DNA of 64,000 nucleotides, from positions 65,901-129,900 of the forward strand of contig CAZBWU010000003.1 in the NCBI GenBank assembly GCA_964496095.1, read 5' to 3'. Under the pieces are notes generated by a model. The model ran no database searches, was not told the DNA's origin, and saw only the letters and a list, made by a program, of their open reading frames with translations. How positions within the stretch are numbered: the first letter of the stretch is position 1; every line of letters starts with the position of its first letter. This DNA comes from an uncultured Gammaproteobacteria bacterium. Lineage in GTDB: Bacteria > Patescibacteriota > Patescibacteriia > Magasanikbacterales > GWA2-37-8. Shown here in pieces: positions 24,232-50,901 of the stretch. A program made the translations under genes and the position numbers.

Positions 24232-25653
24232 ATGAAAATTTACAACACCCTCACTCGCGAAATCGAAGAATTCAAACCAATCAAAAAAGGTAAGGCTGGC
24301 CTCTATACCTGTGGCCCCACTGTTTATAATTATGCTCACATAGGCAACTTACGTACTTATGTTTTTGAAGATATTTTGAAAAGAGTTTTGGAATACAACA
24401 AATACAAAGTCAAACATATAATGAACATTACCGACGTTGGCCACCTCACAGACGACGCCGACCAAGGTGAAGATAAAATGGAAAAAGGTTCTGCTCGCGA
24501 AGGTAAAAGCGCTTGGGATATTGCGAAGTTTTATACCAAGGCTTTTGAAAACGACCTCAAAGATCTAAATATTATTTTCCCAACCAAATTTACCAAAGCC
24601 ACAGATAACATCAAAGAACAAATAAACTTAATCAAAAAACTAGAAAAAAAAGGTTTTACATACCAAACCAAAGATGGAGTTTATTTTGATACTTCCAAAT
24701 TAAAAGACTACGGCAAACTAGCTCAACTTGATAAACAAGATTTAAAAGCCGGATCAAGAGTAGAAATGGGTGATAAAAAAAATTCAACTGACTTTGCTCT
24801 CTGGAAATTTTCTACTCCGTTATCCCCTCCTGCCCGAGGAGGGGTTGGAGGTGGTGGGAGAAGACAAATGGAATGGAAGAGTCCTTGGGGCGTTGGTTTC
24901 CCTGGTTGGCATATAGAATGCTCGGCTATGGCTGCCAAATATCTTGGCCAACCTTTTGATATTCATTGTGGAGGTATAGACCATATTCCTGTGCACCATA
25001 CCAATGAAATTGCTCAGAGCGAAGCAGCTGAAGGCAAACCTTTAGCCAACTACTGGATGCATGGGGAGTTTTTGCTAATGGGAAGTGATAAAATGGCAAA
25101 ATCTGGCGATAACTTTGTCACTTTACAAACACTCAAAGAACATGGCATTTCTCCCCTAGCCTATCGCTATCTACTTTTGCAAACTCATTACCGAAAACAA
25201 CTCACGTTTAGTTGGGAGGCTTTACAGGCAGCGCAAAATGGTTTGGATCATCTCTATAAAGCCTCTGCAATGTTAAAAAACGATCCTACCATAGTAGATA
25301 AAGATTCAAACATGAAAGAAATTGAGTCATTTGAAAAATCAATTTATAACGACCTTGATATACCAGGCGCGCTCAGTTGGATGTGGATATTACTACAAAG
25401 ACGAGGGCTTACGTATAAAAAACTGTTAGAATTTGATAAAGTGCTTGGTCTACAGATAGACATAAATGTAAAAAGAATAAATAAAATAAAAACAGAAAAA
25501 AAACCTCCTGAGATTCAAAAACTAATCTCTGCTCGCAACGCTGCTCGCACATCAAAGGACTGGGTCAAGAGCGACGAACTACGAAAAGAAATAGAAGCTT
25601 TAGGATATACGGTTGAAGATAGAGCTGATGGAACAAAAATAATTAAAATTTAA
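24232..25653 (+). CDS. cysS: cysteine--tRNA ligase
   Basis: ...[17 protein letters not shown]... (HIGH), ...GWHIECSAM..., ...KMAKSGDN... (KMSKS). Contains an approximately 10-codon GC-rich palindromic in-frame insert. Confidence 0.9.
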
Positions 25654-28293: not shown

Positions 28294-28448
28294 TGTCATC
28301 CTGAACGTAGTGAAGAATCTCTGTCGGCTGTTCGTTGTCATCCCCGACCTGATCGGGGATCCAGCGTACAATTAAATTGCCTGGATTCCCGCTGTTGCGG
28401 GAATGACAATTGTTTGGGCAGGGATTCTTCGCCTTGCTCAGAATGACA
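28294..28448. repeat. nested MITE cluster: family A element carrying a family B element inside
   Basis: Outer tgtcatcctgaacgtagtgaagaatctctgtc...gggattcttcgccttgctcagaatgaca. Inner ttgtcatccccgacctgatcggggatccag...ctggattcccgctgttgcgggaatgacaa. Confidence 0.7.
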
Positions 28449-29049: not shown

Positions 29050-31593
29050 ATGAATATTACGGATTTTTTTTACAGTACTATTTCCCTATTCTCCACCGAT
29101 TTTTTTATCATGATTTTTCCGTTTCTTCTAGGATTAGTTTTTTTGATTTCCTCTTTATATATTCTCAAAGCTATCCTCACTATTCGCGGACGCAAAGGCA
29201 AAGCCTTTCACAAAACAGTCCTACTTATCAAAGTACCAAAAGAAAAAAAAGGCGACAAACCCGAATCAGCCAGCGCCGAAGACAACATCAACCATGTACG
29301 TGAAGAAGTGGCCGTGGCTGAAACAATTTTTTCCGCTGTCGCCGGTCTCAAACAAGAAAAAGGTATCAAAGCATGGCTAATGGGTCGAAATGATCATATT
29401 GCTTTTGAAATTGTAGTCAAAGACAACAAGATTTCTTTTTATGTAGTGATGCCAGACAAAGTCAAAGGCTTTATGGAACAACAAATCCACGCTCAGTATC
29501 CTCACGCAGAAATCACAGAAGAGCCGGATTACAACGCTTTCAAACCGCAAAGTCATATTGTCGGCGCTTATCTATGGCTCAAACATAAATCCGCTTTCCC
29601 GCTCAAAACATACAAAAAACTGGATAGCGATCCACTTATCGCTCTTCTTAATCCCCTAAGTAAAGTTGGCGAAGATGAAGGGGCTATAATCCAATACATA
29701 GTACGGCCTGCCTCTCGCAAATGGCGCAGTCAAGGCGTGCATATGGTACGTGATATTAAGAGTGGCGAAAAATTTGAAGATGTCGCCAAAAGAAATTATG
29801 TCTTGAAATTTTTCAAAGATTTTCTCAAATATTTAGCTCCTAGCAAAAAAAGCGAGGGTGGTATGGATCAAAGATATCAGATGACACAAATGGAAGAAGA
29901 GATGATAAAAAACATGGAAGAAAAAATTAGTCGTGGCGGTCTTGAAGCAACCATTCGCATAGTAAGTTCTGCCAACAACAAAGAAAAAGCCGTGATGAAT
30001 CTAGAAAATATTATTAATGCCTTCAGTCAATACAATCTATATAGATACGGTAATACTCTAGCGGCAGCTGTGCCTCGCAAACCAAATACTTTGATTCGTG
30101 ACTACATATATAGAGGCATGAAAGAAAGCCACTACATGGTCTTTAACACCGAAGAGATGGCAAGTTTTTGGCATATGCCAATCCCAAGTACCGAAACACC
30201 AAATATAAATTGGCTTGGAGCGCGCAAGTCTCCCCCACCAACCAACGTCGCCAAAGAAGGCATTACTCTTGGCAGAGCGGTATATAGAGGCGAAGAAACA
30301 ATTATTAAAATGAAACGTGAGGACCGTCGTCGTCATCTCTATACTATCGGTAAATCAGGTAGTGGTAAATCTGTCTTTATCCAAAACATGGCTGTGCAAG
30401 ATATTATCGCCGGCGAAGGTGTCTGTGTTATCGATCCGCACGGAGATTTTGTGGATTATGTTTTGCAACATGTGCCAAAAGAACGCGCCGAAGATGTTAT
30501 TTATTTTAATCCTTCCGATACAGACAGACCAATTGGTTTAAATATTATCGAAGTCTCAACCGAAGAACAAAAAGATTTTGCTACCCAAGAAATGATTTCT
30601 ATTTTCTATAAGTTGGTGACTGACCCATCTATGATTGGTCCGATGTTTGAACACAGTATGCGTAACGTCATGTTGACGCTCATGGCTGACATGGTCAACC
30701 CCGGAACAATTGCCGAAATCCCTCGCATGTTTACCGATGACGAGTTTGTGAAAAAATGGAAAAGCAAACTTAATGACCCGATGGTTCTTGCTTTCTGGGA
30801 TAAAGAAATGGCCAAGACTTCTGACTTCCACAAATCTGAAATGCTTGGTTATTTAATTTCCAAAGTGGGTCGCTTTATCGAAAATTCCATGATCAGAAAT
30901 ATTATCGGACAAACCCATTCTGGTTTTAATTTCCGCGAAGTCATGGATAACAAAAAAATATTATTAGTTAATCTTGCCAAAGGTTTGGTGGGAGAAATGA
31001 ACTCAAACTTACTTGGTTTAATTATTGTATCCAAATTACAAATGGCCGCTCTGGAGCGCGCCTCCCTACCAGAAGATCAACGTCATGATTTTTATTTGTA
31101 TATCGATGAGTTCCAAAACTTTATCACCGACTCTATCGCCACCATTCTTTCTGAAGCTCGTAAATATCGCTTAGAACTTATTATTGCCCACCAGTATATG
31201 AAGCAGTTGGAAGATAATAAAGGTAAAACTACCGTACGCGATGCCGTGCTTGGTAATGCGGGTACACTTGTATCATTCCGTATCGGTGTAGAAGATGCTG
31301 AAGTCCTGGCCAAAGAATACGCTCCTGTGTTTAGCGCTTATGATCTGGTAAACGTTGAACAATTTACCGCTTATGTTAAACTGTTGATTGACAATACAGC
31401 TGCCAAACCGTTTAATATGCTTACCTACCCTCCTCGCTCTGGCAATAAACAGCTAGCAGCAGCTATAAAAGAGCTTTCTAGATTAAAATACGGCCGACCA
31501 AGAGAGATTGTGGAAGCAGAAATTGAAGAAAGAGCACAGTTAGGCGCAGTTACCAAAGAAAGTAAGGCTTCCATTAGTGAAATAGGGTTATAA
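29050..31593 (+). CDS. membrane-anchored P-loop ATPase of the FtsK/HerA/TraD(VirD4)-like superfamily with a large N-terminal domain
   Basis: N-terminal TM. Walker A ...HLYTIGKSGSGKSVFIQN.... ...VIDPHGDFVDYV...IYFNPSD... resembles the TrwB/TraD DPxG...NPLD region. Walker B ...FYLYIDEFQNF..., then ...RKYRLELIIAHQ.... Residues 100-400 are paralogous to 40524..41978. Confidence 0.5.
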   Translation: MNITDFFYSTISLFSTDFFIMIFPFLLGLVFLISSLYILKAILTIRGRKGKAFHKTVLLIKVPKEKKGDKPESASAEDNINHVREEVAVAETIFSAVAGLKQEKGIKAWLMGRNDHIAFEIVVKDNKISFYVVMPDKVKGFMEQQIHAQYPHAEITEEPDYNAFKPQSHIVGAYLWLKHKSAFPLKTYKKLDSDPLIALLNPLSKVGEDEGAIIQYIVRPASRKWRSQGVHMVRDIKSGEKFEDVAKRNYVLKFFKDFLKYLAPSKKSEGGMDQRYQMTQMEEEMIKNMEEKISRGGLEATIRIVSSANNKEKAVMNLENIINAFSQYNLYRYGNTLAAAVPRKPNTLIRDYIYRGMKESHYMVFNTEEMASFWHMPIPSTETPNINWLGARKSPPPTNVAKEGITLGRAVYRGEETIIKMKREDRRRHLYTIGKSGSGKSVFIQNMAVQDIIAGEGVCVIDPHGDFVDYVLQHVPKERAEDVIYFNPSDTDRPIGLNIIEVSTEEQKDFATQEMISIFYKLVTDPSMIGPMFEHSMRNVMLTLMADMVNPGTIAEIPRMFTDDEFVKKWKSKLNDPMVLAFWDKEMAKTSDFHKSEMLGYLISKVGRFIENSMIRNIIGQTHSGFNFREVMDNKKILLVNLAKGLVGEMNSNLLGLIIVSKLQMAALERASLPEDQRHDFYLYIDEFQNFITDSIATILSEARKYRLELIIAHQYMKQLEDNKGKTTVRDAVLGNAGTLVSFRIGVEDAEVLAKEYAPVFSAYDLVNVEQFTAYVKLLIDNTAAKPFNMLTYPPRSGNKQLAAAIKELSRLKYGRPREIVEAEIEERAQLGAVTKESKASISEIGL

Positions 31594-31605: not shown

Positions 31606-33258
31606 ATGTCAACAATCTACCGTAAATACCGTCCTCAAGTTTTTGCCGATGTCACAGGTCAAGACCATATTATCAAAACTATTACCAACGAAATCGCAAC
31701 TAACAAAATCGCGCATGCTTATTTATTTTGTGGACCACGCGGTACGGGTAAAACTACCACTGCCCGCTTACTAGCCAAAGCGATAAATTGTGAAAATAAA
31801 AAAGATGGCGAATACGAACCTTGCAACATCTGCTCTTCTTGTGTTGAATCAACTGCGAGCCACAGTATAGATATTATTGAAATAGACGCAGCTTCCAATA
31901 CCGGCGTAGACAATGTCCGTGAAAATATTATTGAAAACGCTCAGTTCAAACCAACCAAATCAAAATACAAAGTCTTTATCATCGACGAAGTCCACATGCT
32001 TTCTACCGGTGCTTTCAACGCCCTGCTCAAGACCGTAGAAGAACCTCCAGTGCATGTTATATTTATCCTCGCTACTACCGAGACTCACAAATTACCAGCC
32101 ACCATTATTTCCCGTTGCCAACGTTTTAATTTCAAAAAAGTTGGCTACGATGACATGCTCAAACGCTTAGAAGAACTTTGCAAAAGTGAAAAAATAAAAG
32201 TTGATAAAAAAGTTTTGGAAAGAATAATCAACAAGAGCGACGGCTGTGTCCGTGATGCTGAAAGCCTGCTAGGACAAATTTTGAGTCTTGACTTAAAAAG
32301 TATTGGCCCGGAAGACGCCGAGATGATTCTCCCTACTTCAAATGTAGAATCTATTTTAGAGTTTATTAATCTTATCTTAGACAAAAACCCAGCGACCGCC
32401 ATTGAATTACTACAAAAATCGGTAGAAGACGGGATAAACCTTGAACAGTTTGCCTATGACACAGTTGAGGCTTTACGCCTAGCCATGATTGTCCAAACAA
32501 ACTTCCAAACCAAAAATCTCAATACCGATTATAGCGACAAAGATTTAGGGTCTATCAAAAAAATCGCAGAAAAAATCACTACTCCGAGACTAATCAAAAT
32601 GCTTGAATCTCTGATTATCCGCCACCGAGAAATCAAATCATCTCCCCTACCTCAATTACCTTTGGAATTATTTGCCGTTGAATTTGGGATAGAGGAAGAA
32701 ATAGCTACAACTAATCGTTCGTCCGGTGCAACATCTGTCATTCCGACCCCCGCAAGCGGGATAAATTCCACAGAGGAATCCCTTAAACCAAAGGATAAGG
32801 GATCTTTCGACTCGGCAAAAGCCTCACTCAAGATGACAGAAACGACAACTATAGTTGAAAAAGAAGAACCAAAAACACCGAATCCAATCACCCAAGCAAT
32901 CAAAGATACTATCACCCATATTGCAAGTGGAGACATAAAAACAACCTTTGATGAAATCAAAAATAAATGGAATAGTATCATTGAAGAAATAAGCAAAAAA
33001 AATCATTCCCTCAGCTTCATTCTCAAAATGAGCCAGCTACAACATGTTCAAGATGGACGTCTGTACATCACTGTTCCTTACTCTTTTCATAAAGATAAAA
33101 TCAACGAAATCAATACTAAAAAAACCATTGAACAAGCAATAACAAATTTCTTCTCAGAACATATTCCTCTGGTTTGCGATGTGATCGCAGCGCCAGCTAT
33201 CGAAGAGGATTCTGAATTAAACAAATTAGCCGCCGATTTTGGCGGAGAGGTTGTGTAA
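31606..33258 (+). CDS. dnaX: DNA polymerase III subunit gamma/tau
   Basis: ...YRPQVFADVTGQDHI...AYLFCGPRGTGKTTTARLLAKAINC... (clamp-loader AAA+ with C-x-x-C Zn module) and ...FIIDEVHMLS...SRCQRFNF.... Carries a MITE in-frame at 32736..32837. Confidence 0.85.
   Translation: MSTIYRKYRPQVFADVTGQDHIIKTITNEIATNKIAHAYLFCGPRGTGKTTTARLLAKAINCENKKDGEYEPCNICSSCVESTASHSIDIIEIDAASNTGVDNVRENIIENAQFKPTKSKYKVFIIDEVHMLSTGAFNALLKTVEEPPVHVIFILATTETHKLPATIISRCQRFNFKKVGYDDMLKRLEELCKSEKIKVDKKVLERIINKSDGCVRDAESLLGQILSLDLKSIGPEDAEMILPTSNVESILEFINLILDKNPATAIELLQKSVEDGINLEQFAYDTVEALRLAMIVQTNFQTKNLNTDYSDKDLGSIKKIAEKITTPRLIKMLESLIIRHREIKSSPLPQLPLELFAVEFGIEEEIATTNRSSGATSVIPTPASGINSTEESLKPKDKGSFDSAKASLKMTETTTIVEKEEPKTPNPITQAIKDTITHIASGDIKTTFDEIKNKWNSIIEEISKKNHSLSFILKMSQLQHVQDGRLYITVPYSFHKDKINEINTKKTIEQAITNFFSEHIPLVCDVIAAPAIEEDSELNKLAADFGGEVV
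32736..32837. repeat. MITE-like family A element inserted in-frame within dnaX
   Basis: tgtcattccgacccccgcaagcgggataaattccacagaggaatccctt...gggatctttcgactcggcaaaagcctcactcaagatgaca, 102 nt, encodes ...SVIPTPASGINSTEESLKPKDKGSFDSAKASLKMTE.... Confidence 0.65.
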
Positions 33259-33318: not shown

Positions 33319-34146
33319 ATGTTAAAATTGATTTTTGTAGCCCTGTTTGCGCTTCTTGGATTTGGTGCTTCTACCGCTCAGGCAACCGAAGAAAAAATAA
33401 ACTTACCCGTTCCATATATACCCGAAGCACCAGATGGTCTAATGGTAAAACCATGGAACAACTCTTGTGAAGAAGCTTCCACCGCCATGCTTGATGAATA
33501 CTATTTTGGCAATCATCAAAAAACCATTTCCGCAACAAAGGCCAAGCAACTTATTCTCAACTACATAGCTATTGAAAATAAGATTTTTGGGTTTAACGCA
33601 GATACCAACGCCACTGAAATGACTAAAGTTATCAACGAACATTCCAAATACTTTGAAGCTAAAATAAAAACCAATCCAACTCTAGAAGAAGTAAAAGCTG
33701 AACTACTTGCTGAGAGACCAGTTATCGCCTTGCTTTATGGAAAAAATTTAGAAAATCCCCGCATTCACTTTGCTCGTAATGGCTCTTATTATCACACTAT
33801 TGTAATAAAGGGTTTTGATGATGAAACGAATGAATTTATCGTGAATGACAATGGCGATTTTGAGCAAGGTCTTGACTTACGGTATTCGTATGATACAATC
33901 ATGGGCGCTTTACGTGATTTTGACCGTAAAATTCGAAAAACGGTTAAACCAGCCACCGTGCTGTTTTCTAGCCAAAGAATGCTAGTTAAAACAGCAAATT
34001 CCAACCGCATATATCTAATCAAGAATAATAAAAAACAGCACATTACTTCACCAGCATTGTTCAAAACCAATGGTTGGAAATGGAGCTTTGTGATGACAGT
34101 TTCACAGTCTTGGTTGGATAAGTTTGAAACTAGTTCAACAATTTAG
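33319..34146 (+). CDS. secreted protein, possibly C39-like (papain-fold) peptidase domain
   Basis: Signal peptide. ...KPWNNSCEEASTAMLDEYY... resembles the Q...N.CGP.S.AM...YY region of peptidase_C39_2-type proteins. Weak call. Confidence 0.3.
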   Translation: MLKLIFVALFALLGFGASTAQATEEKINLPVPYIPEAPDGLMVKPWNNSCEEASTAMLDEYYFGNHQKTISATKAKQLILNYIAIENKIFGFNADTNATEMTKVINEHSKYFEAKIKTNPTLEEVKAELLAERPVIALLYGKNLENPRIHFARNGSYYHTIVIKGFDDETNEFIVNDNGDFEQGLDLRYSYDTIMGALRDFDRKIRKTVKPATVLFSSQRMLVKTANSNRIYLIKNNKKQHITSPALFKTNGWKWSFVMTVSQSWLDKFETSSTI

Positions 34147-34155
34147 TCTTTCGCC

Positions 34156-34267
34156 TGTCATTCTGAACGAAGTGAAGAATCTCTGTCCGTACAATGTCAT
34201 TCCCGCCAAAGCGGGAATCCAGACAATTCGAACGTACCCTGGATTCCCAATCAAGTTGGGAATGACA
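34156..34267. repeat. MITE composite: family A half-element plus complete family B element, abutting tRNA-Gln
   Basis: tgtcattctgaacgaagtgaagaatctctgtccg then tgtcattcccgccaaagcgggaatccag...ctggattcccaatcaagttgggaatgacaa. Confidence 0.7.
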
Positions 34268-34274
34268 AAAACAT

Positions 34275-34345
34275 TCCGAGGTGGTCTAATGGTAGGACAA
34301 CGGACTCTGAATCCGTTTATCTTGGTTCGAATCCAAGCCTCGGAA
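34275..34345 (+). tRNA. tRNA-Gln (CTG)
   Basis: TCCGAGGTGGTCTAATGGTAGGACAACGGACTCTGAATCCGTTTATCTTGGTTCGAATCCAAGCCTCGGAA. 7 bp acceptor, D and T arms fold, anticodon loop CUCUGAA. CCA not encoded. Confidence 0.8.
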
Positions 34346-34465
34346 CAAATAAGTACATAATTAAGTGTTTTTTAACACCCCCAACAATAAAATTTTATAA
34401 TCTTGTCAAGAGAGTTATTAACAGCTATTTTTGGCTAACAATAAAGGTTATTTAAAGAAAATCAT

Positions 34466-35235: not shown

Positions 35236-35991
35236 TCAATCCTTTCTCCCCTCCAAAAACAAAAACAAAGGAAACTCCTTACGCGATTTATCCTCTGCTG
35301 TAAAGCGCGGACCTCTAGTAGGTTCACGATGAGAAATCCATTCTTCAAGTTTTGTCACCGCCAAACCATGCTTGCGAAGCATTTTGAAATACCATTGCAA
35401 CGGTCTATGAAAAGAAACAGTTTTTTCTGAGTTTTTTTGTCCCGGGTGCATATCTATTTCTGTTTGAAATTCTGACAAATAAGCATCCAGTCGGCGATAC
35501 TGTACTTTCTCCACTTCATCCCACTGCCAACTAGAAACCTTTGGGGTTCTATATGCCGGATGATTCAAAACCAAAAACAAACTCCCCTTTTCTTTGAGAA
35601 CTCTGGCACATTCTTTAAACACTCCGTCTACATTTTTTATATTTTGCAAAGCAAGAATAATTATTATTTGGTCCACAGATTTATCTGCGCAAAAACTAAT
35701 ATTGTCTGCTGGCGCTACATGATAATCTATAGGTTGTGATTTATGTTTTTTAGCAAGATTGATTAATTCTGGAGAAATATCTGAGGCAACAACTTTGGCA
35801 CCACCCTCAGCGATAATACGAGAAAAAAATCCTTGCCCACAAGCCAAATCCAAAATCACTTGGTTTTTATCCAATTTTATAGATCTAAGCAAATTTGGCA
35901 AAATAACTTTTTGCTGAAAAGAATCGTCGTCTTTTTCAAGAAGCTTGTCATACCAATTCGCGACTTTGTTCCAGGATGTATCTTTTTTCAT
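35236..35991 (-). CDS. class I SAM-dependent methyltransferase
   Basis: Motif I ...VILDLACGQGFFSRIIAEGGAKVVASDIS.... Small-molecule-type MTase fold, no DNA-MTase motifs. Confidence 0.7.
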   Translation of the reverse strand: MKKDTSWNKVANWYDKLLEKDDDSFQQKVILPNLLRSIKLDKNQVILDLACGQGFFSRIIAEGGAKVVASDISPELINLAKKHKSQPIDYHVAPADNISFCADKSVDQIIIILALQNIKNVDGVFKECARVLKEKGSLFLVLNHPAYRTPKVSSWQWDEVEKVQYRRLDAYLSEFQTEIDMHPGQKNSEKTVSFHRPLQWYFKMLRKHGLAVTKLEEWISHREPTRGPRFTAEDKSRKEFPLFLFLEGRKD

Positions 35992-36041
35992 GGAGTTATT
36001 CTAATCGAAATACAACAATCGGTCAATTAAAAAGGTTGTGC

Positions 36042-36153
36042 TGTCATCCTGAGCAAAGCCGTAGCGAAGTCGAAGGATCCCTTATACTAAGGGTTCTGCA
36101 AATACTATGTTTAAGGGATTCCTCCACTCGTCTCGAGACTCGGTCGGAATGAC
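36042..36153. repeat. MITE-like palindromic element, family A variant
   Basis: tgtcatcctgagcaaagccgtagcgaagtcgaaggatccctt...aagggattcctcc...cggaatgaca. Confidence 0.65.
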
Positions 36154-36209
36154 ATTACAAAACAAAGCTTACCTTGCAAAAACTCTTTAAAAATGATAAT
36201 ATCTCCGAT

Positions 36210-37061
36210 ATGTCAACCATTATAGACGGCAAAAAACTAGCCTCAAAAATAGAAAAAAGCACTGCCAAAGAGGTGGCTATTTTGAAAACCAAAGGCATTG
36301 TGCCAAAGCTGGCAGTTATTTTGGTTGGCAATGACAAACCTTCACAAACTTATATAAATAGAAAAAAAGAAGCAGCCGAGCGCATTGGCATAGATTTTGC
36401 TTTATATCAATTTCCAAAAAATATTTCCAAAGATGATTTGATTAGTAATCTTAAAAAAATTCAAGAAGATAAAAAACTGACTGGTCTGATAGTTCAGCTT
36501 CCTCTGCCAGAAAGATTATACAACTCAGAAGTTTTAAACTCCATTAACCCAGCCATAGACGTGGACTGTTTGACCGATAGCAACATCGGCAAATTGGTAA
36601 TGGAAACAAATCATATCGAACCCCCAACTCCTTGGGCAGTCATAAAAACTCTTAAAGAAATTAAATTTAATTTAAAAGGAAAAAATATTACCATCGTTGG
36701 CACAGGCGCACTGGTCGGTAAACCGCTTTCTATAATGCTTGTTAACGAACTTGCAAGCGTCACCACCTGCAATATTCACACCCAAGATCTAAAAAAGAAA
36801 TGCCTAGAGGCAGATGCGATCATCTCGGCAGTCGGCAAACAAAATCTGATTACCAAAGATATGGTGAAGAAAAATGCAGTTGTGATTGATACGGGCATTG
36901 TCTATGTAGATGGCAAAATGCATGGCGATGTTGACTTCCAAAATGTTTCCAAAAAAACTAGCTTCATCACGCCTACTCCTGGCGGTATAGGTCCAATTAC
37001 CGTTGCTAAATTACTTCTCAATACAGTCACTTGCGCAAAAAAAATAAACAGTATACTCTAG
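36210..37061 (+). CDS. folD: bifunctional methylenetetrahydrofolate dehydrogenase/cyclohydrolase
   Basis: MSTIIDGKKLASKI..., ...LAVILVGNDKPSQTYINRKKEAAERIGI..., ...GLIVQLPLP..., ...TPTPGGIGPITVA.... FolD collinear. Confidence 0.85.
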   Translation: MSTIIDGKKLASKIEKSTAKEVAILKTKGIVPKLAVILVGNDKPSQTYINRKKEAAERIGIDFALYQFPKNISKDDLISNLKKIQEDKKLTGLIVQLPLPERLYNSEVLNSINPAIDVDCLTDSNIGKLVMETNHIEPPTPWAVIKTLKEIKFNLKGKNITIVGTGALVGKPLSIMLVNELASVTTCNIHTQDLKKKCLEADAIISAVGKQNLITKDMVKKNAVVIDTGIVYVDGKMHGDVDFQNVSKKTSFITPTPGGIGPITVAKLLLNTVTCAKKINSIL

Positions 37062-44929: not shown

Positions 44930-45008
44930 AATATACGAGTTAGAATTTATCCCGCCGCAGCGGGACCCCGCCTAACGGCGGTGGGAATATAGAATTAAAC
45001 ACCTTAAC

Positions 45009-45096
45009 TGTCATCCCGAGCGAAGCCGCTCCTGCGGCTGACGAGGGATCTTTCCGTGTACGGACAGAGATTCCTTCTTCGTCGTCGGAATGACAA
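45009..45096. repeat. MITE-like palindromic element, family A
   Basis: tgtcatcccgagcgaagccgctcctgcggctgacgagggatc...cggacagagattccttcttcgtcgtcggaatgacaa. Preceded by a GC-rich palindrome (44951..44987). Confidence 0.7.
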
Positions 45097-47668: not shown

Positions 47669-50518
47669 TTAAGCCCCATGGCACTTCTTATACTTCTTTC
47701 CACTTCCACAAGGGCATAAATCATTTCTTCCAATTACTTTTCCATCTGCGTCTTTTTCTTTAGTCTTACTAACCACTTGTTCTTCAACTTCTGCGTCTGT
47801 AGTTTTACTTGCGCCCTTAAAACGCAAAGCATTGCTTCTATCCATTACCGATGGCGCCAACTGAATACCTAAGTTTACTTTATAGATGAGATAAACCACT
47901 TCTTTTTGAATCAAACTCAAAAGCTCATTAAACATTCTAAATGTTTCTTTCTTATACTCTACCAGTGGATCTTGTTGAGCATAACCGCGCAGGCCAATAC
48001 CAGTACGAAGATAATCAACTGCCACCAAGTGATCTACCCAAAGATTATCCATCGCACGAAGCAACACTTGTTTTTCAATTTCAAGTAGCATTTCCGGATT
48101 TGGAACAGCTTTAACCAAGAGAACTTCGTATTTTTCCTTTGCCAAACCAACCAAGTATTCAATAGTTTTGGTACGGATTTCCACATCATCCATTTTTTGC
48201 TCACGCTCCCCAGAAGCCAAGTCCGTAATAAATTTCTTTTCCTCATCTGACAAAGCAAAGATAGTAGAAACTGTTTCTAAGATTTCTTTAACATTCCATT
48301 CGCGACGACTTTCAGCATTGGTGTGAAAAGAAATAACTTGTTCGATCTCCTGCTCTACCATATCAAGAATCATTTGACGCAACGTCTTGGCGTCTGTCAT
48401 CTTGAGCGAAGATTTAGCTGAGTCGAGAGACGCCTTGTCCTCTGGTTTAAGGGATTCCTCCATTTCATCCGGAATGAGAAGTGAGTTATCCAGCGCTTTT
48501 TTTTCTCTATCAAACCCAAACAAAATTTCTCGACGCTTACCGTAAATAACTTCACGGTGACGATTAAGCACGTCATCATATTCCAACAAGTGTTTTCTTG
48601 AATCAAAATGCATGCCTTCTACTTTTTTCTGAGCAGACTCAATAATCCGGCTAATCATTTTTTGTTCGATTGGCATATCTTCCGGCACTTTGAGCGTCTC
48701 CATGACCGAGCGAATACGATCACCAGCAAAAATACGCATCAAATCATCTTGGGTAGAAAGATAAAATTGTGATTGACCAGGATCTCCCTGACGACCACTA
48801 CGACCACGAAGCTGGTTATCAATACGACGACTTTCGTGACGTTCAGTACCAATTACAAATAGACCTCCAGCATTGCGCACTTTTTCGGCCTCTTCTGGCA
48901 CAACCGGATTTCCTCCAAGCAAGATATCAACCCCGCGGCCAGCCATATTAGTAGCGAGCGTGACCGCACCGGCATGACCAGCCTGAGCGATAATCTCACC
49001 TTCTCGTTCGTGATTCTTGGCATTTAAAATTTCATGTTTTATTCCTTCTCTTTCCAAATACAAACTTAAGGCTTCGTTTTTATCTACGGCCACAGTACCG
49101 ATAAGCACTGGCTGGCCCTTGGTTTGCAATTCTTTAACAGTCTGGGCAATAGCTTTGTATTTTGCTTCTTCGGTCTTATAGATTCTGTCTGGATGATTGA
49201 TACGCTGATTGATTTTATTTGGTGGCACGACAACCACTTCTAATTTATAAATTTTGCCAAACTCTTCGGCTTCGGTCACCGCCGTTCCAGTCATACCGGA
49301 CAACTTTGGATATAATCTAAAATAATTCTGAAAAGTAACGGTGGCCATGGTCTGACTTTCTTGTTGGATATTTACGCCTTCTTGGGCTTCAATGGCTTGA
49401 TGCAAACCTTCACTATAACGTCGACCTGGCATCTTGCGACCAGTGAATTCATCAACGATTATTACCTCACCATTTTCAACTATATAATCCCGATCACGAG
49501 CAAATAACGCATGCGCGCGCAAAGCTTGCTCCACATGATGTACGGTTTTGATTCCACCTTCAGCATAAATATTATCTATACCCAACAATTTTTCCATTTT
49601 TGTAATGCCCGCTTCAGAAAGCGTGGCTGAACGCATTTTTTCATCAACATTATAATCTTCCTTTTCTACCAAAGTTCGCACCAAATCCGCAAACTTATAA
49701 TACATATCCGTTGCATCTTCAGCGGGAGCGGAAATAATCAGTGGGGTTCTCGCTTCATCAATCAGGATCGAATCTACTTCGTCAACAATCGCGTAGAAAA
49801 ATGGTCGTTGCGCCATCTCGGCGCTGTTTTGGACCATGTTATCGCGCAAATAATCAAAACCGAATTCATTGTTGGTACCATAGGTAATATCGCAAGCATA
49901 GGCATTTTTTCTAGAACATGATTCTAGATATTCTGTTTCAACTTTAAACATACCTTTAGCATCGCGCTCTTTGTCGGCCTCACTACCTTCGGATAAATTT
50001 TCACCTTGCAAAGTCTTTTGAGCATTATACTTAAAAGAAATTAATTGTTGCTGAATAATCCCCACAGTTAATCCCAAAGCGTCATAAATCTGACTCATCC
50101 AGACTGCATCACGTTTGGCCAAATAATCATTAACTGTCACCACATGCACGCCTTTACCCGCGAGTGCGTTGAGGTATGTTGGTAATGTTCCTACTAAAGT
50201 TTTCCCCTCACCAGTTCCCATTTCTACTATATTACCGCGATGAAGAGCAATACCACCAATAAGCTGAACATCAAAATGACGCATACCAGTGATGCGTTTT
50301 GAAGTTTCACGAATAACAGCATAGGCTTCAGGTAAAATATCGTCTAAAGTTTCGCCCTCGGTCAAACGTTTTTTGAATTCATCAGTTTTGGCACGCAAAT
50401 CTACCAAAGATAACTTTTGCATCTCTGATTCCAACGCATTTATTTCTTCTACAATCGGCTTGATACCTGCGACTACTTTGGCGTTTGGATCTCCAAAAAT
50501 TTTAGTGAGAAATGACAT
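47669..50518 (-). CDS. secA: preprotein translocase ATPase SecA
   Basis: MSFLTKIFGDPNAK... start, DEAD-like motor (...MGTGEGKTLV..., ...VDEVDSILIDEARTPLIIS...), C-terminal Zn finger CPCGSGKKYKKCHG. Carries a MITE in-frame at about 48395..48479. Confidence 0.9.
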   Translation of the reverse strand: MSFLTKIFGDPNAKVVAGIKPIVEEINALESEMQKLSLVDLRAKTDEFKKRLTEGETLDDILPEAYAVIRETSKRITGMRHFDVQLIGGIALHRGNIVEMGTGEGKTLVGTLPTYLNALAGKGVHVVTVNDYLAKRDAVWMSQIYDALGLTVGIIQQQLISFKYNAQKTLQGENLSEGSEADKERDAKGMFKVETEYLESCSRKNAYACDITYGTNNEFGFDYLRDNMVQNSAEMAQRPFFYAIVDEVDSILIDEARTPLIISAPAEDATDMYYKFADLVRTLVEKEDYNVDEKMRSATLSEAGITKMEKLLGIDNIYAEGGIKTVHHVEQALRAHALFARDRDYIVENGEVIIVDEFTGRKMPGRRYSEGLHQAIEAQEGVNIQQESQTMATVTFQNYFRLYPKLSGMTGTAVTEAEEFGKIYKLEVVVVPPNKINQRINHPDRIYKTEEAKYKAIAQTVKELQTKGQPVLIGTVAVDKNEALSLYLEREGIKHEILNAKNHEREGEIIAQAGHAGAVTLATNMAGRGVDILLGGNPVVPEEAEKVRNAGGLFVIGTERHESRRIDNQLRGRSGRQGDPGQSQFYLSTQDDLMRIFAGDRIRSVMETLKVPEDMPIEQKMISRIIESAQKKVEGMHFDSRKHLLEYDDVLNRHREVIYGKRREILFGFDREKKALDNSLLIPDEMEESLKPEDKASLDSAKSSLKMTDAKTLRQMILDMVEQEIEQVISFHTNAESRREWNVKEILETVSTIFALSDEEKKFITDLASGEREQKMDDVEIRTKTIEYLVGLAKEKYEVLLVKAVPNPEMLLEIEKQVLLRAMDNLWVDHLVAVDYLRTGIGLRGYAQQDPLVEYKKETFRMFNELLSLIQKEVVYLIYKVNLGIQLAPSVMDRSNALRFKGASKTTDAEVEEQVVSKTKEKDADGKVIGRNDLCPCGSGKKYKKCHGA
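48395..48479. repeat. MITE-like family A element inserted in-frame within secA
   Basis: Minus strand tctcattccggatgaaatggaggaatccctt...gtctctcgactcagctaaatcttcgctcaagatgaca. Encodes ...LLIPDEMEESLKPEDKASLDSAKSSLKMTD..., almost the same peptide as the dnaX insert. Confidence 0.6.
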
Positions 50519-50580
50519 AAATAATATTAAAAATAAGCCCTCTTTAGGCTTTTGCATTTTATCATAGATAATAGAGATAA

Positions 50581-50901
50581 TCAAGGATTTTGAGGAGTGT
50601 TCTGAGATAACAAAAGCGCACTTATTCTTTCCCCTTCTCGTTCCACCACTTCCCCATCATACTCACCTGAATGAGCCGTCACACCTTCATAAATTGGCCG
50701 TTTTTGATCCAAATGTAAATCAAAACTAACAAAGTCGCCTTCTTGTTTTATATAAACATGATACCTGGGATAAAAATCACGATGGATACGTTTGGCAAAA
50801 CTAGTTTTGCCCATGCGCCTGTCTATTATCTTGGCATAACCACAGCGCATGAGATTTTTTTCCGGATCACTAATTTGTTCTTTTTTGAATTTGATTATCA
50901 T
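50581..50901 (-). CDS. conserved hypothetical protein
   Basis: Start at MIIKFKKEQ.... Contains ...FYPRYHVYIKQEGDFVSFDLHLDQKRPIYEGVTAHSGEYDGEVVEREGER. No family assigned. Confidence 0.35.
   Translation of the reverse strand: MIIKFKKEQISDPEKNLMRCGYAKIIDRRMGKTSFAKRIHRDFYPRYHVYIKQEGDFVSFDLHLDQKRPIYEGVTAHSGEYDGEVVEREGERISALLLSQNTPQNP

Follow-up and report, generated by a model that had tools for sequence, protein, structure and literature searches.

In the summary of Ogata et al. (2000 Science 290:347) given in PMC10969869, the Rickettsia palindromic elements (RPE) are described as palindromic repeats that lie in frame in many unrelated genes. The repetitive extragenic palindromic sequences (REP) and bacterial interspersed mosaic elements (BIME) are imperfect palindromes of 20–40 bp with a GTAG or CGTC head and are mobilised by RAYT transposases (PMC3733652). 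Here, a palindromic repeat within the reading frame of dnaX was analysed in a 64,000-nucleotide stretch of a Magasanikbacterales genome of the Patescibacteria (contig CAZBWU010000003.1, positions 65,901 to 129,900; assembly GCA_964496095.1), hereafter called the window. dnaX encodes the tau/gamma-type clamp-loader subunit of DNA polymerase III and is known for recoding: in E. coli the tau/gamma switch uses a slippery A AAA AAG and a downstream stem-loop, and dnaX of Thermus thermophilus has a transcriptional slippage site. The segment examined here belongs to a small palindromic repeat of modular, non-autonomous type, copies of which are widespread in genomes of the Patescibacteria, or Candidate Phyla Radiation (CPR). 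Very probably it is a tolerated, near-neutral and selfish insertion of the RPE-like kind in a permissive, disordered linker of DnaX, translated as tether residues.

The element in dnaX and its host linker

The sequence at 32736–32837, TGTCATTCCGACCCCCGCAAGCGGGATAAATTCCACAGAGGAATCCCTTAAACCAAAGGATAAGGGATCTTTCGACTCGGCAAAAGCCTCACTCAAGATGAC, was confirmed to hold a repeat where a first, sequence-only reading of the window had placed a 102-nt element; the place stood, and the length did not, as the ends had been chosen asymmetrically. Among the matches listed from a metagenome pattern search (described below), family copies end in T-GTCAT...ATGAC-A in 87 of 88 cases. The left arm was fixed by the search pattern; the T preceding it is conserved in those 87 copies. 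Since T and A are conserved outside GTCAT...ATGAC, the element is TGTCAT...ATGACA, which is 103 nt in dnaX, or 105 nt with the flanking C and G counted.

The inverted termini form the pair CTGTCATT / GATGACAG, and the right-terminus variant TCAAGATGAC also occurs in family copies of L086, L093, L133, L166 and L187. Two mini-hairpins lie between the termini, together with an inner 8-bp inverted repeat, ATCCCTTA (32778–32785) and TAAGGGAT (32796–32803). The 16-nt core is identical across the dnaX, secA and intergenic copies and the central helix is present in the RNA fold, with a central loop much shorter than that of the intergenic master copies. The left module, at a position that is variable across the family, stands in for the 7-nt TGAAATG of the short form, with a net gain of 18 nt and the peptide PASGINST instead of EM. 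A 13-nt match of this extra hairpin module at 44943–44955 was not above chance. The element as a whole folds at -30.7 kcal/mol (z = -3.9 against dinucleotide shuffles).

The element is read in frame as 34 residues, VIPTPASGINSTEESLKPKDKGSFDSAKASLKMT, within an intact 550-residue open reading frame (ORF), as the sequence-only reading had claimed. Two of its six frames are free of stops, one of which is the dnaX frame; a shift to either of the other frames meets a stop after 8–16 codons, inside the element. A length divisible by three had been offered as further support. With an intact ORF that argument becomes circular: the net length is a survivorship condition and provides no independent evidence.

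The host ORF was assigned to DnaX on the basis of the Pfam domains DNA_pol3_delta2 (aa 18–179) and DNA_pol3_gamma3, which is domain III (aa 240–356), and of thousands of homologues, the nearest named ones from Candidatus Magasanikbacteria of the CPR/Patescibacteria lineage. A weak PolC-NII-like Pfam match covers aa 455–517. AlphaFold2, supplied with a 30-sequence alignment, returned confident folds at aa 7–365 and 442–528. Between them, aa 366–441 had a predicted local distance difference test (pLDDT) score below 50, with block means of 29–42, and aa 362–426 had no secondary structure. The hypervariable block of the same alignment coincides with this linker and is bounded by the invariant PLPQLPLELF motif and the conserved C-terminal domain; the residues of the element (aa 378–411) lie in the middle of the tether. 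The linker is predicted to be intrinsically disordered and permissive for insertion. The earlier placement of the element in the linker after domain III agrees with the pLDDT of ~30 for aa 366–441.

The C-terminal domain may be tau-specific; a sequence search of the PDB with aa 425–550 gave no significant match. A scan of a genome collection with the DnaX alignment, over very conserved motifs, gave only orthologues of 31–52% identity among the matches listed, and nothing for the linker. No Rfam family covers the element, the only match at threshold being a tRNA, with one weak small-RNA match below it. A phmmer search with a 39-aa segment against a representative library gave one match, to a 3832-aa protein without any of the motifs, which was judged compositional, and a word-indexed search with a 41-aa query gave no candidates; both queries are short and have low power. 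The gene 5' of dnaX (29050–31593) encodes an 847-aa DUF8128 / TraG-TrwB-like coupling ATPase, and its synteny with dnaX extends to every relative examined.

Gamma/tau recoding was considered as a role for the hairpin and was rejected for this locus. The upstream sequence, CGTTCGTCCGGTGCAACAT, contains no slippery motif, and the products of adding or removing one A were simulated. Runs of seven or more A in the window's dnaX are found at aa 318, 464 and 505, none of them near the element. Runs of A7–A8 are common in these AT-rich genes and none stands next to the hairpin, which led to the idea being dropped. A resident linker element in the dnaX of P0031 (L197, 11120–11202; 66–70% identity) has an A9 run at aa 384, where the gain or loss of one A leads to a stop within 1–3 codons. 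This arrangement recalls the Thermus dnaX slippage site.

Copies of the family in the window, in secA and beyond

The window holds three or four copies of the family (Table 1), whose members are 80 to 199 nt long. Over 68 nt the copy in secA is 85% identical to the dnaX element, a match with E = 1e-10 to 1e-15 within the window, and its fold z-score is +0.9. The host protein of L187, identified as SecA because its sequence is nearly identical to the window's, has at this site an 85-nt copy that is intact; outside the left module, the dnaX element is 94% identical to this intact copy over 66 nt. The earlier claim that dnaX and secA hold the same repeat family is borne out by this comparison. 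The intergenic copy upstream of folD has the termini and the 16-nt core in common with the dnaX element and folds at -38.8 kcal/mol (z = -3.5). It is also present in L001, with 5 differences. On the JGI contig of P0004, the spacer between the methyltransferase gene and folD (35992–36173 in the window) is only 36 bp. Judged from this spacer length, the intergenic copy appears to be absent there, which would be a presence/absence difference at 88% DnaX identity.

Table 1. Positions in the window of dnaX, of the parts of its palindromic element and of related copies
Feature	Position	Strand	Basis or remark
dnaX, DNA polymerase III tau/gamma-type clamp-loader subunit (550 aa), insertion host	31606-33258	+	ORF, Pfam, homologues
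Predicted disordered DnaX linker (aa 362-441), which joins the collar (domain III) to the folded C-terminal domain (aa 442-550)	32689-32928	+	AlphaFold2, alignment
Palindromic repeat element, CTGTCAT...ATGACAG	32735-32839	+	Core TGTCAT...ATGACA at 32736-32838; read as V378-T411
Left terminal inverted repeat, TGTCATTCCGA	32736-32746	+	Pairs with the right terminus in the RNA fold
Right terminal inverted repeat, TCAAGATGACA	32828-32838	+	Sequence, RNA fold
Variable left module: mini-hairpin CCCCCGCAAGCGGG, then ATAAATTCCACA	32747-32772	+	Alignments of window, L001, L003, secA copies and L187
Family core GAGGAATCCCTTAAAC, shortened central loop and complementary TAAGGGATC (inner inverted repeat)	32773-32804	+	Copy alignments, fold
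Short-form copy, in frame in secA (47669-50584, minus)	48395-48479	-	Peptide LIPDEMEESLKPEDKASLDSAKSSLKMT; palindrome decayed
Intergenic near-perfect hairpin copy, flanked by folD (36174-37061, plus) and a methyltransferase gene (35236-35991, minus)	36042-36154	-	Repeat search, fold
Intergenic element, more distantly related, whose termini are the same, TGTCATTCCGACGACGAAG...TCGGGATGACA	45009-45095	-	Subfamily found in the dnaX linker of orthologue L198

Beyond the window, a pattern combining the terminus and the core, GTCATTCCGA-N(5-35)-GAGGAATCCCTTAAAC (26 specified bases), matched at least 113 metagenome contigs, many of them from groundwater and sediment samples, and most of the copies are intergenic. 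Among the matches listed, about 14 of the 88 complete copies lie in open frames of at least 150 aa, in various frames and both orientations. Host genes of other copies that were confirmed by Pfam encode RecJ, QueA, a UvrD-type helicase, MnmA and a Wzy_C membrane protein, and the peptides VIPT..EESLK..LKMT and LSFRA..RNPLN..RDD recur. Single host proteins with two or three in-frame elements of the superfamily were seen in L182, L165 and L194, the hosts being MnmA, a Wzy_C-type protein and a large membrane protein; multiple colonisation of one gene thus occurs.

These copies bear on the suggestion that the segment is native linker sequence with a coincidental resemblance to the repeats, or a repeat collapsed into the gene by assembly. 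Linkers are of low complexity and variable, and repeats can mislead assemblers. However, the homology of the segment to the intergenic and secA copies is at the nucleotide level and includes both termini, the pattern recurs on at least 113 contigs, the same gene arrangement is found in independent assemblies from three archives (ENA, NCBI and JGI), and the ORF is intact through the element. An origin of this kind is scarcely credible.

The intergenic master copies are 111–122 nt, have stops in the VIPT frame and change frame across a long central loop. The right half of the dnaX element is nucleotide-identical to the full-length intergenic copies L133 and L117; in L133 (2586–2710, 122 nt) the right half is the same as in both the dnaX and secA copies. 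Two shortenings, one in the left arm and one in the central loop, are common to the dnaX and secA copies and produce one open frame across the element. These shared shortenings support the claim that dnaX and secA hold the same element, and they mean that the dnaX copy is not full-length. The sequence-only reading had described it as full-length, which has to be given up: compared with the masters it has two deletions and an extra 18-nt module. The short form may either have spread as such or be the variant that survived selection inside genes.

The secA site can be compared with its empty state. SecA orthologues of 81–84% identity have 6–8 residues where the window has 37, in a loop after the long scaffold helix, and the empty site was seen directly in the DNA of L202. 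With the site empty at both the protein and the DNA level, the secA copy is a genuine insertion independent of that in dnaX, as had been proposed. One assembly, GCA_964514995.1, has both an element-free dnaX (L199) and the empty secA (L202), and over its 31 kb of available sequence repeats are less dense. In L201, at 92% SecA identity, the window element is absent and a different 105-nt family, TGTCATTGCGA...TCGCAATGACA, stands a few codons upstream, which indicates rapid element turnover or replacement at one site. The L201 element (2378–2480) encodes the peptide LSLRASEGSEAI...SPRNDN, and the native loop codons are missing. Many other SecA orthologues have further element types in the same loop.

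Several further families in the window end in TGTCATYC...GRATGACA, some nested in one another. Such elements number about 12 in the window; those in dnaX and secA alone are inside long genuine genes. An example of nesting is found at 28295–28447, where an inner element (28337–28407) occupies the loop of an outer TGTCATCCTGAAC... element. At 34157–34266, a half element and an inner element adjoin a tRNA gene (34275–34345), and the 78-aa ORF at 34124–34360 is mere read-through of the repeats and the tRNA (VILNEVKNL...VIPAKAGIQ). A second, smaller class of in-frame palindrome is represented by the GC-rich hairpin CCCCTCCTGCCCGAGGAGGGG at 24824–24844 in cysS (24232–25653), which encodes the peptide LSPPARGGV. 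Hairpins of the cysS type also occur in the dnaX linker of L200 (1253–1273) and in L173, and peptides like SPLGRGR/GGVG are found in the SecA loop of other orthologues.

History and retention of the insertion in dnaX

Orthologues of the window's DnaX were compared across the insertion site. The closest, P0002 (L001/L002; 96% amino acid and 91.8% nucleotide identity), has the same element at the same junctions, identical in every nucleotide. P0003 (L003; 89%) has the same left junction and a shorter variant, VIPTEMEESLKPEDRGSFDSAKASLKIT, that is without 18 nt of the left module (TGAAATG in place of CCCCGCAAGCGGGATAAATTCCACA); the same shorter variant is present in P0004 (88%), as read from the protein only. 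In P0005 (L199, assembly GCA_964514995.1; 74%), the terminal inverted repeat motifs are absent and at most a decayed trace is present (TSDSARNMHTEM versus SFDSAKASLKMT). Between the window and L003, the element is ~90% identical outside the left module and the whole gene 85%, a pattern that fits vertical inheritance with an in-frame indel. The sequence-only reading would have been undercut by the same segment in DnaX of a family-free genome, and no such case was found: all carriers are close relatives, and L001 has the family intergenically as well.

The element at the same site in orthologues of 88–96% identity implies that the insertion is old and fixed in the clade, not recent. Presence/absence polymorphism, which the sequence-only reading had proposed as a check, was found in none of the available close relatives; the insertion is common to the lineages of 88–96% identity.

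In more distant orthologues (L197, L198 and L200; 65–79%), the linker is occupied by other members of the superfamily. Measured from the conserved LELFxxEF motif, the element starts after 39 nt in L197, 24 nt in L198, 33 nt in L200 and 51 nt in the window. Both ends of the terminal inverted repeat type are present in L197 and L198, and only the left type was found in L200. The DnaX linker has been colonised more than once. Different subfamilies at the "same" place would also be explained if the dnaX linker and the secA loop had each received one ancient insertion that was then repeatedly overwritten by gene conversion through the TGTCAT...ATGACA termini. The termini are indeed shared between subfamilies, and the window and L003 have the same left junction and different internal modules; the different family in the SecA loop of L201, where the window element is absent, would be accounted for in the same way, and conversion could have left the long identical run between the window and L001 discussed below. 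Nevertheless, the left junctions in dnaX differ (24, 33, 39 and 51 nt after the motif) and the L201 element lies a few codons upstream of the window's in secA. Because these junctions differ, separate insertions into a tolerant region are the simpler account and an exchange of cassettes, which we regard as unlikely, is not needed.

The reading of the dnaX element as a tolerated, near-neutral insertion has to be weighed against several observations. No empty-site dnaX allele was found among close relatives, and the insertion event is thus deduced from the repeat family and the distant orthologues. That the 34 residues are translated into protein we infer from the reading frame. Target-site duplications of 2–5 bp, sought at four boundary offsets in 78 distinct copies, were no more frequent than in shuffled flank pairings, and no transposase partner was found, no systematic transposase search of the window or the source genome having been made; transposition is therefore not demonstrated. 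The window and L001 agree at every position of a 113-nt run (32734–32846) spanning the entire element, in a gene that is 8.2% diverged and just downstream of 60 nt that carry 15 differences. Such a run could reflect constraint or conversion, not neutrality. Between the window and L003, the element has changed at 4 synonymous and 3 non-synonymous positions with its palindrome kept, which hints at some constraint. Elsewhere in the same 5.7-kb block, the window and L001 are also identical over stretches of 220, 115 and 107 nt, which suggests mosaic recombination rather than special constraint. As the 113-nt run is only the third longest in this block, it is not decisive for selection.

Part of this evidence would be expected if the element were an exapted module, with a peptide or an mRNA or DNA hairpin that has a role in dnaX and is kept by selection. 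Possible roles are setting the tether length, slowing the ribosome at the domain III boundary and yielding a truncated gamma-like product. For the last of these, the shifted frames do stop within 8–16 codons, but no slippery heptamer or long A-run is within reach upstream, where the gene is at its most diverged. Retention at the same site in four lineages of 88–100% DnaX identity, and related elements in the same linker of distant orthologues, are consistent with a role; the orthologue at 74% is without the element. The identical run shared with L001 has equally long counterparts nearby. The palindrome has been kept in dnaX and has decayed in secA, yet the peptide differs among relatives (K/E, K/R, AK/AI) and the region is predicted to be disordered. 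Exaptation therefore appears quite unlikely.

On the preferred reading of a tolerated insertion, a palindromic repeat of the shortened, frame-clean subfamily also found in secA would have landed in dnaX before the split of the lineages with 88–96% DnaX identity and then been kept, and the lineage of the window and L001 would later have gained the 18-nt hairpin module. The insertion would be tolerable because the tether is disordered, the orientation and frame are free of stops and the net length keeps the frame. Selection would remove insertions nearly everywhere else in this essential gene, which makes the linker a permissive landing pad. Transcribed and translated with dnaX, the element would add 34 hydrophilic residues to the linker, most likely with little or no effect on DnaX function.

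Comparison with described repeats and recoding sites

No description of such repeats in CPR/Patescibacteria was found in the full-text literature searched, which returned reviews of RPE and of transposable elements of the miniature inverted-repeat kind (MITEs), with results mixed with arachnid mites. Compared with the recoding sites of dnaX, the locus is alike in having a stable mRNA hairpin just after domain III and nearby stops in both alternative frames. It differs in that no slippery heptamer or run of at least 9 A is found upstream, and the upstream sequence is not conserved even at 96% identity.

Like REP and BIME (PMC3733652), the elements are palindromes that lack target-site duplications, lie mostly outside genes and often form clusters or nests. 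They differ from them in size (80–200 bp, with 103 nt for the dnaX copy), in the TGTCAT start and in having two nested inverted repeats, and are not of the REP type.

The sequence-only reading had called the element a MITE. It is smaller than ~300 bp, codes for no transposase, has multiple dispersed copies and ends in the terminal inverted repeats TGTCATTCCGA / TC[GA][GA][GA]ATGACA. Bacterial MITEs such as ERIC, BOX and Correia/NEMIS are likewise small, with terminal inverted repeats, many dispersed copies and no coding capacity of their own, and are occasionally fused in frame with host ORFs (PMC10969869). The name is not established in its strict sense because no target-site duplication was detectable in the 78 distinct copies; in addition, no autonomous insertion sequence with matching ends was identified, although no systematic transposase search was made. 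A further difference is that about 1/6 of the copies, among the matches listed, are in open frames of at least 150 aa.

In-frame selfish palindromes in housekeeping genes have, to our knowledge, so far been regarded as a Rickettsia speciality. The same behaviour is now seen in a free-standing CPR lineage, in core proteins of replication (DnaX) and secretion (SecA). A broader proposal is put forward tentatively, as one that may or may not hold: the CPR/Patescibacteria would possess a large, modular palindromic superfamily, without target-site duplications, that independently of RPE has recurrently colonised essential proteins in their disordered linkers and surface loops (in DnaX the tau linker, in SecA the loop after the scaffold helix, and RecJ, UvrD, MnmA and QueA), including a frame-clean subfamily in dnaX and secA adapted to coding sequence. 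If this is correct, a frame-clean selfish lineage would provide raw material for linker evolution in reduced genomes. That different family members recur at the same permissive sites points to a general way for small repeats to lengthen and renew disordered linkers in such genomes. Part of the odd "insertions" and hypothetical mini-ORFs in CPR annotations is explained in this way, and in practice both gene callers and marker-protein alignments need to be used with such elements in mind. The consequence for DnaX itself is probably small. Most worth following are the recurrent colonisation of the DnaX linker and SecA loop and the frame-clean subfamily that they share.

The closest likeness is to RPE. 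As far as the summary in PMC10969869 describes them, these are also short, dispersed palindromic repeats of ~100–150 bp that are found both between genes and in frame in unrelated housekeeping genes, with a recurring peptide, at sites that the host protein's fold can accommodate, with no known associated transposase and in a small, reduced host genome. The present family has in-frame copies in dnaX and secA in the window and, elsewhere, in secA, recJ, uvrD, mnmA, queA and a gene of the Wzy_C family, and its sites in the DnaX linker (pLDDT ~30) and in the variable-length SecA loop after the scaffold helix are compatible with the fold. The host is different, a Magasanikbacteria-like member of the CPR/Patescibacteria, and the two families are set apart by host and by the lack of an Rfam match, RPE sequences not having been compared. 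By analogy, the locus appears to be a case of RPE-like in-frame selfish DNA in a new phylum, the behaviour itself being known from Rickettsia. What distinguishes the elements described here are their sharply conserved TGTCAT...ATGACA termini, their modular and nestable build, and the presence of several related subfamilies in the same linker of different lineages.

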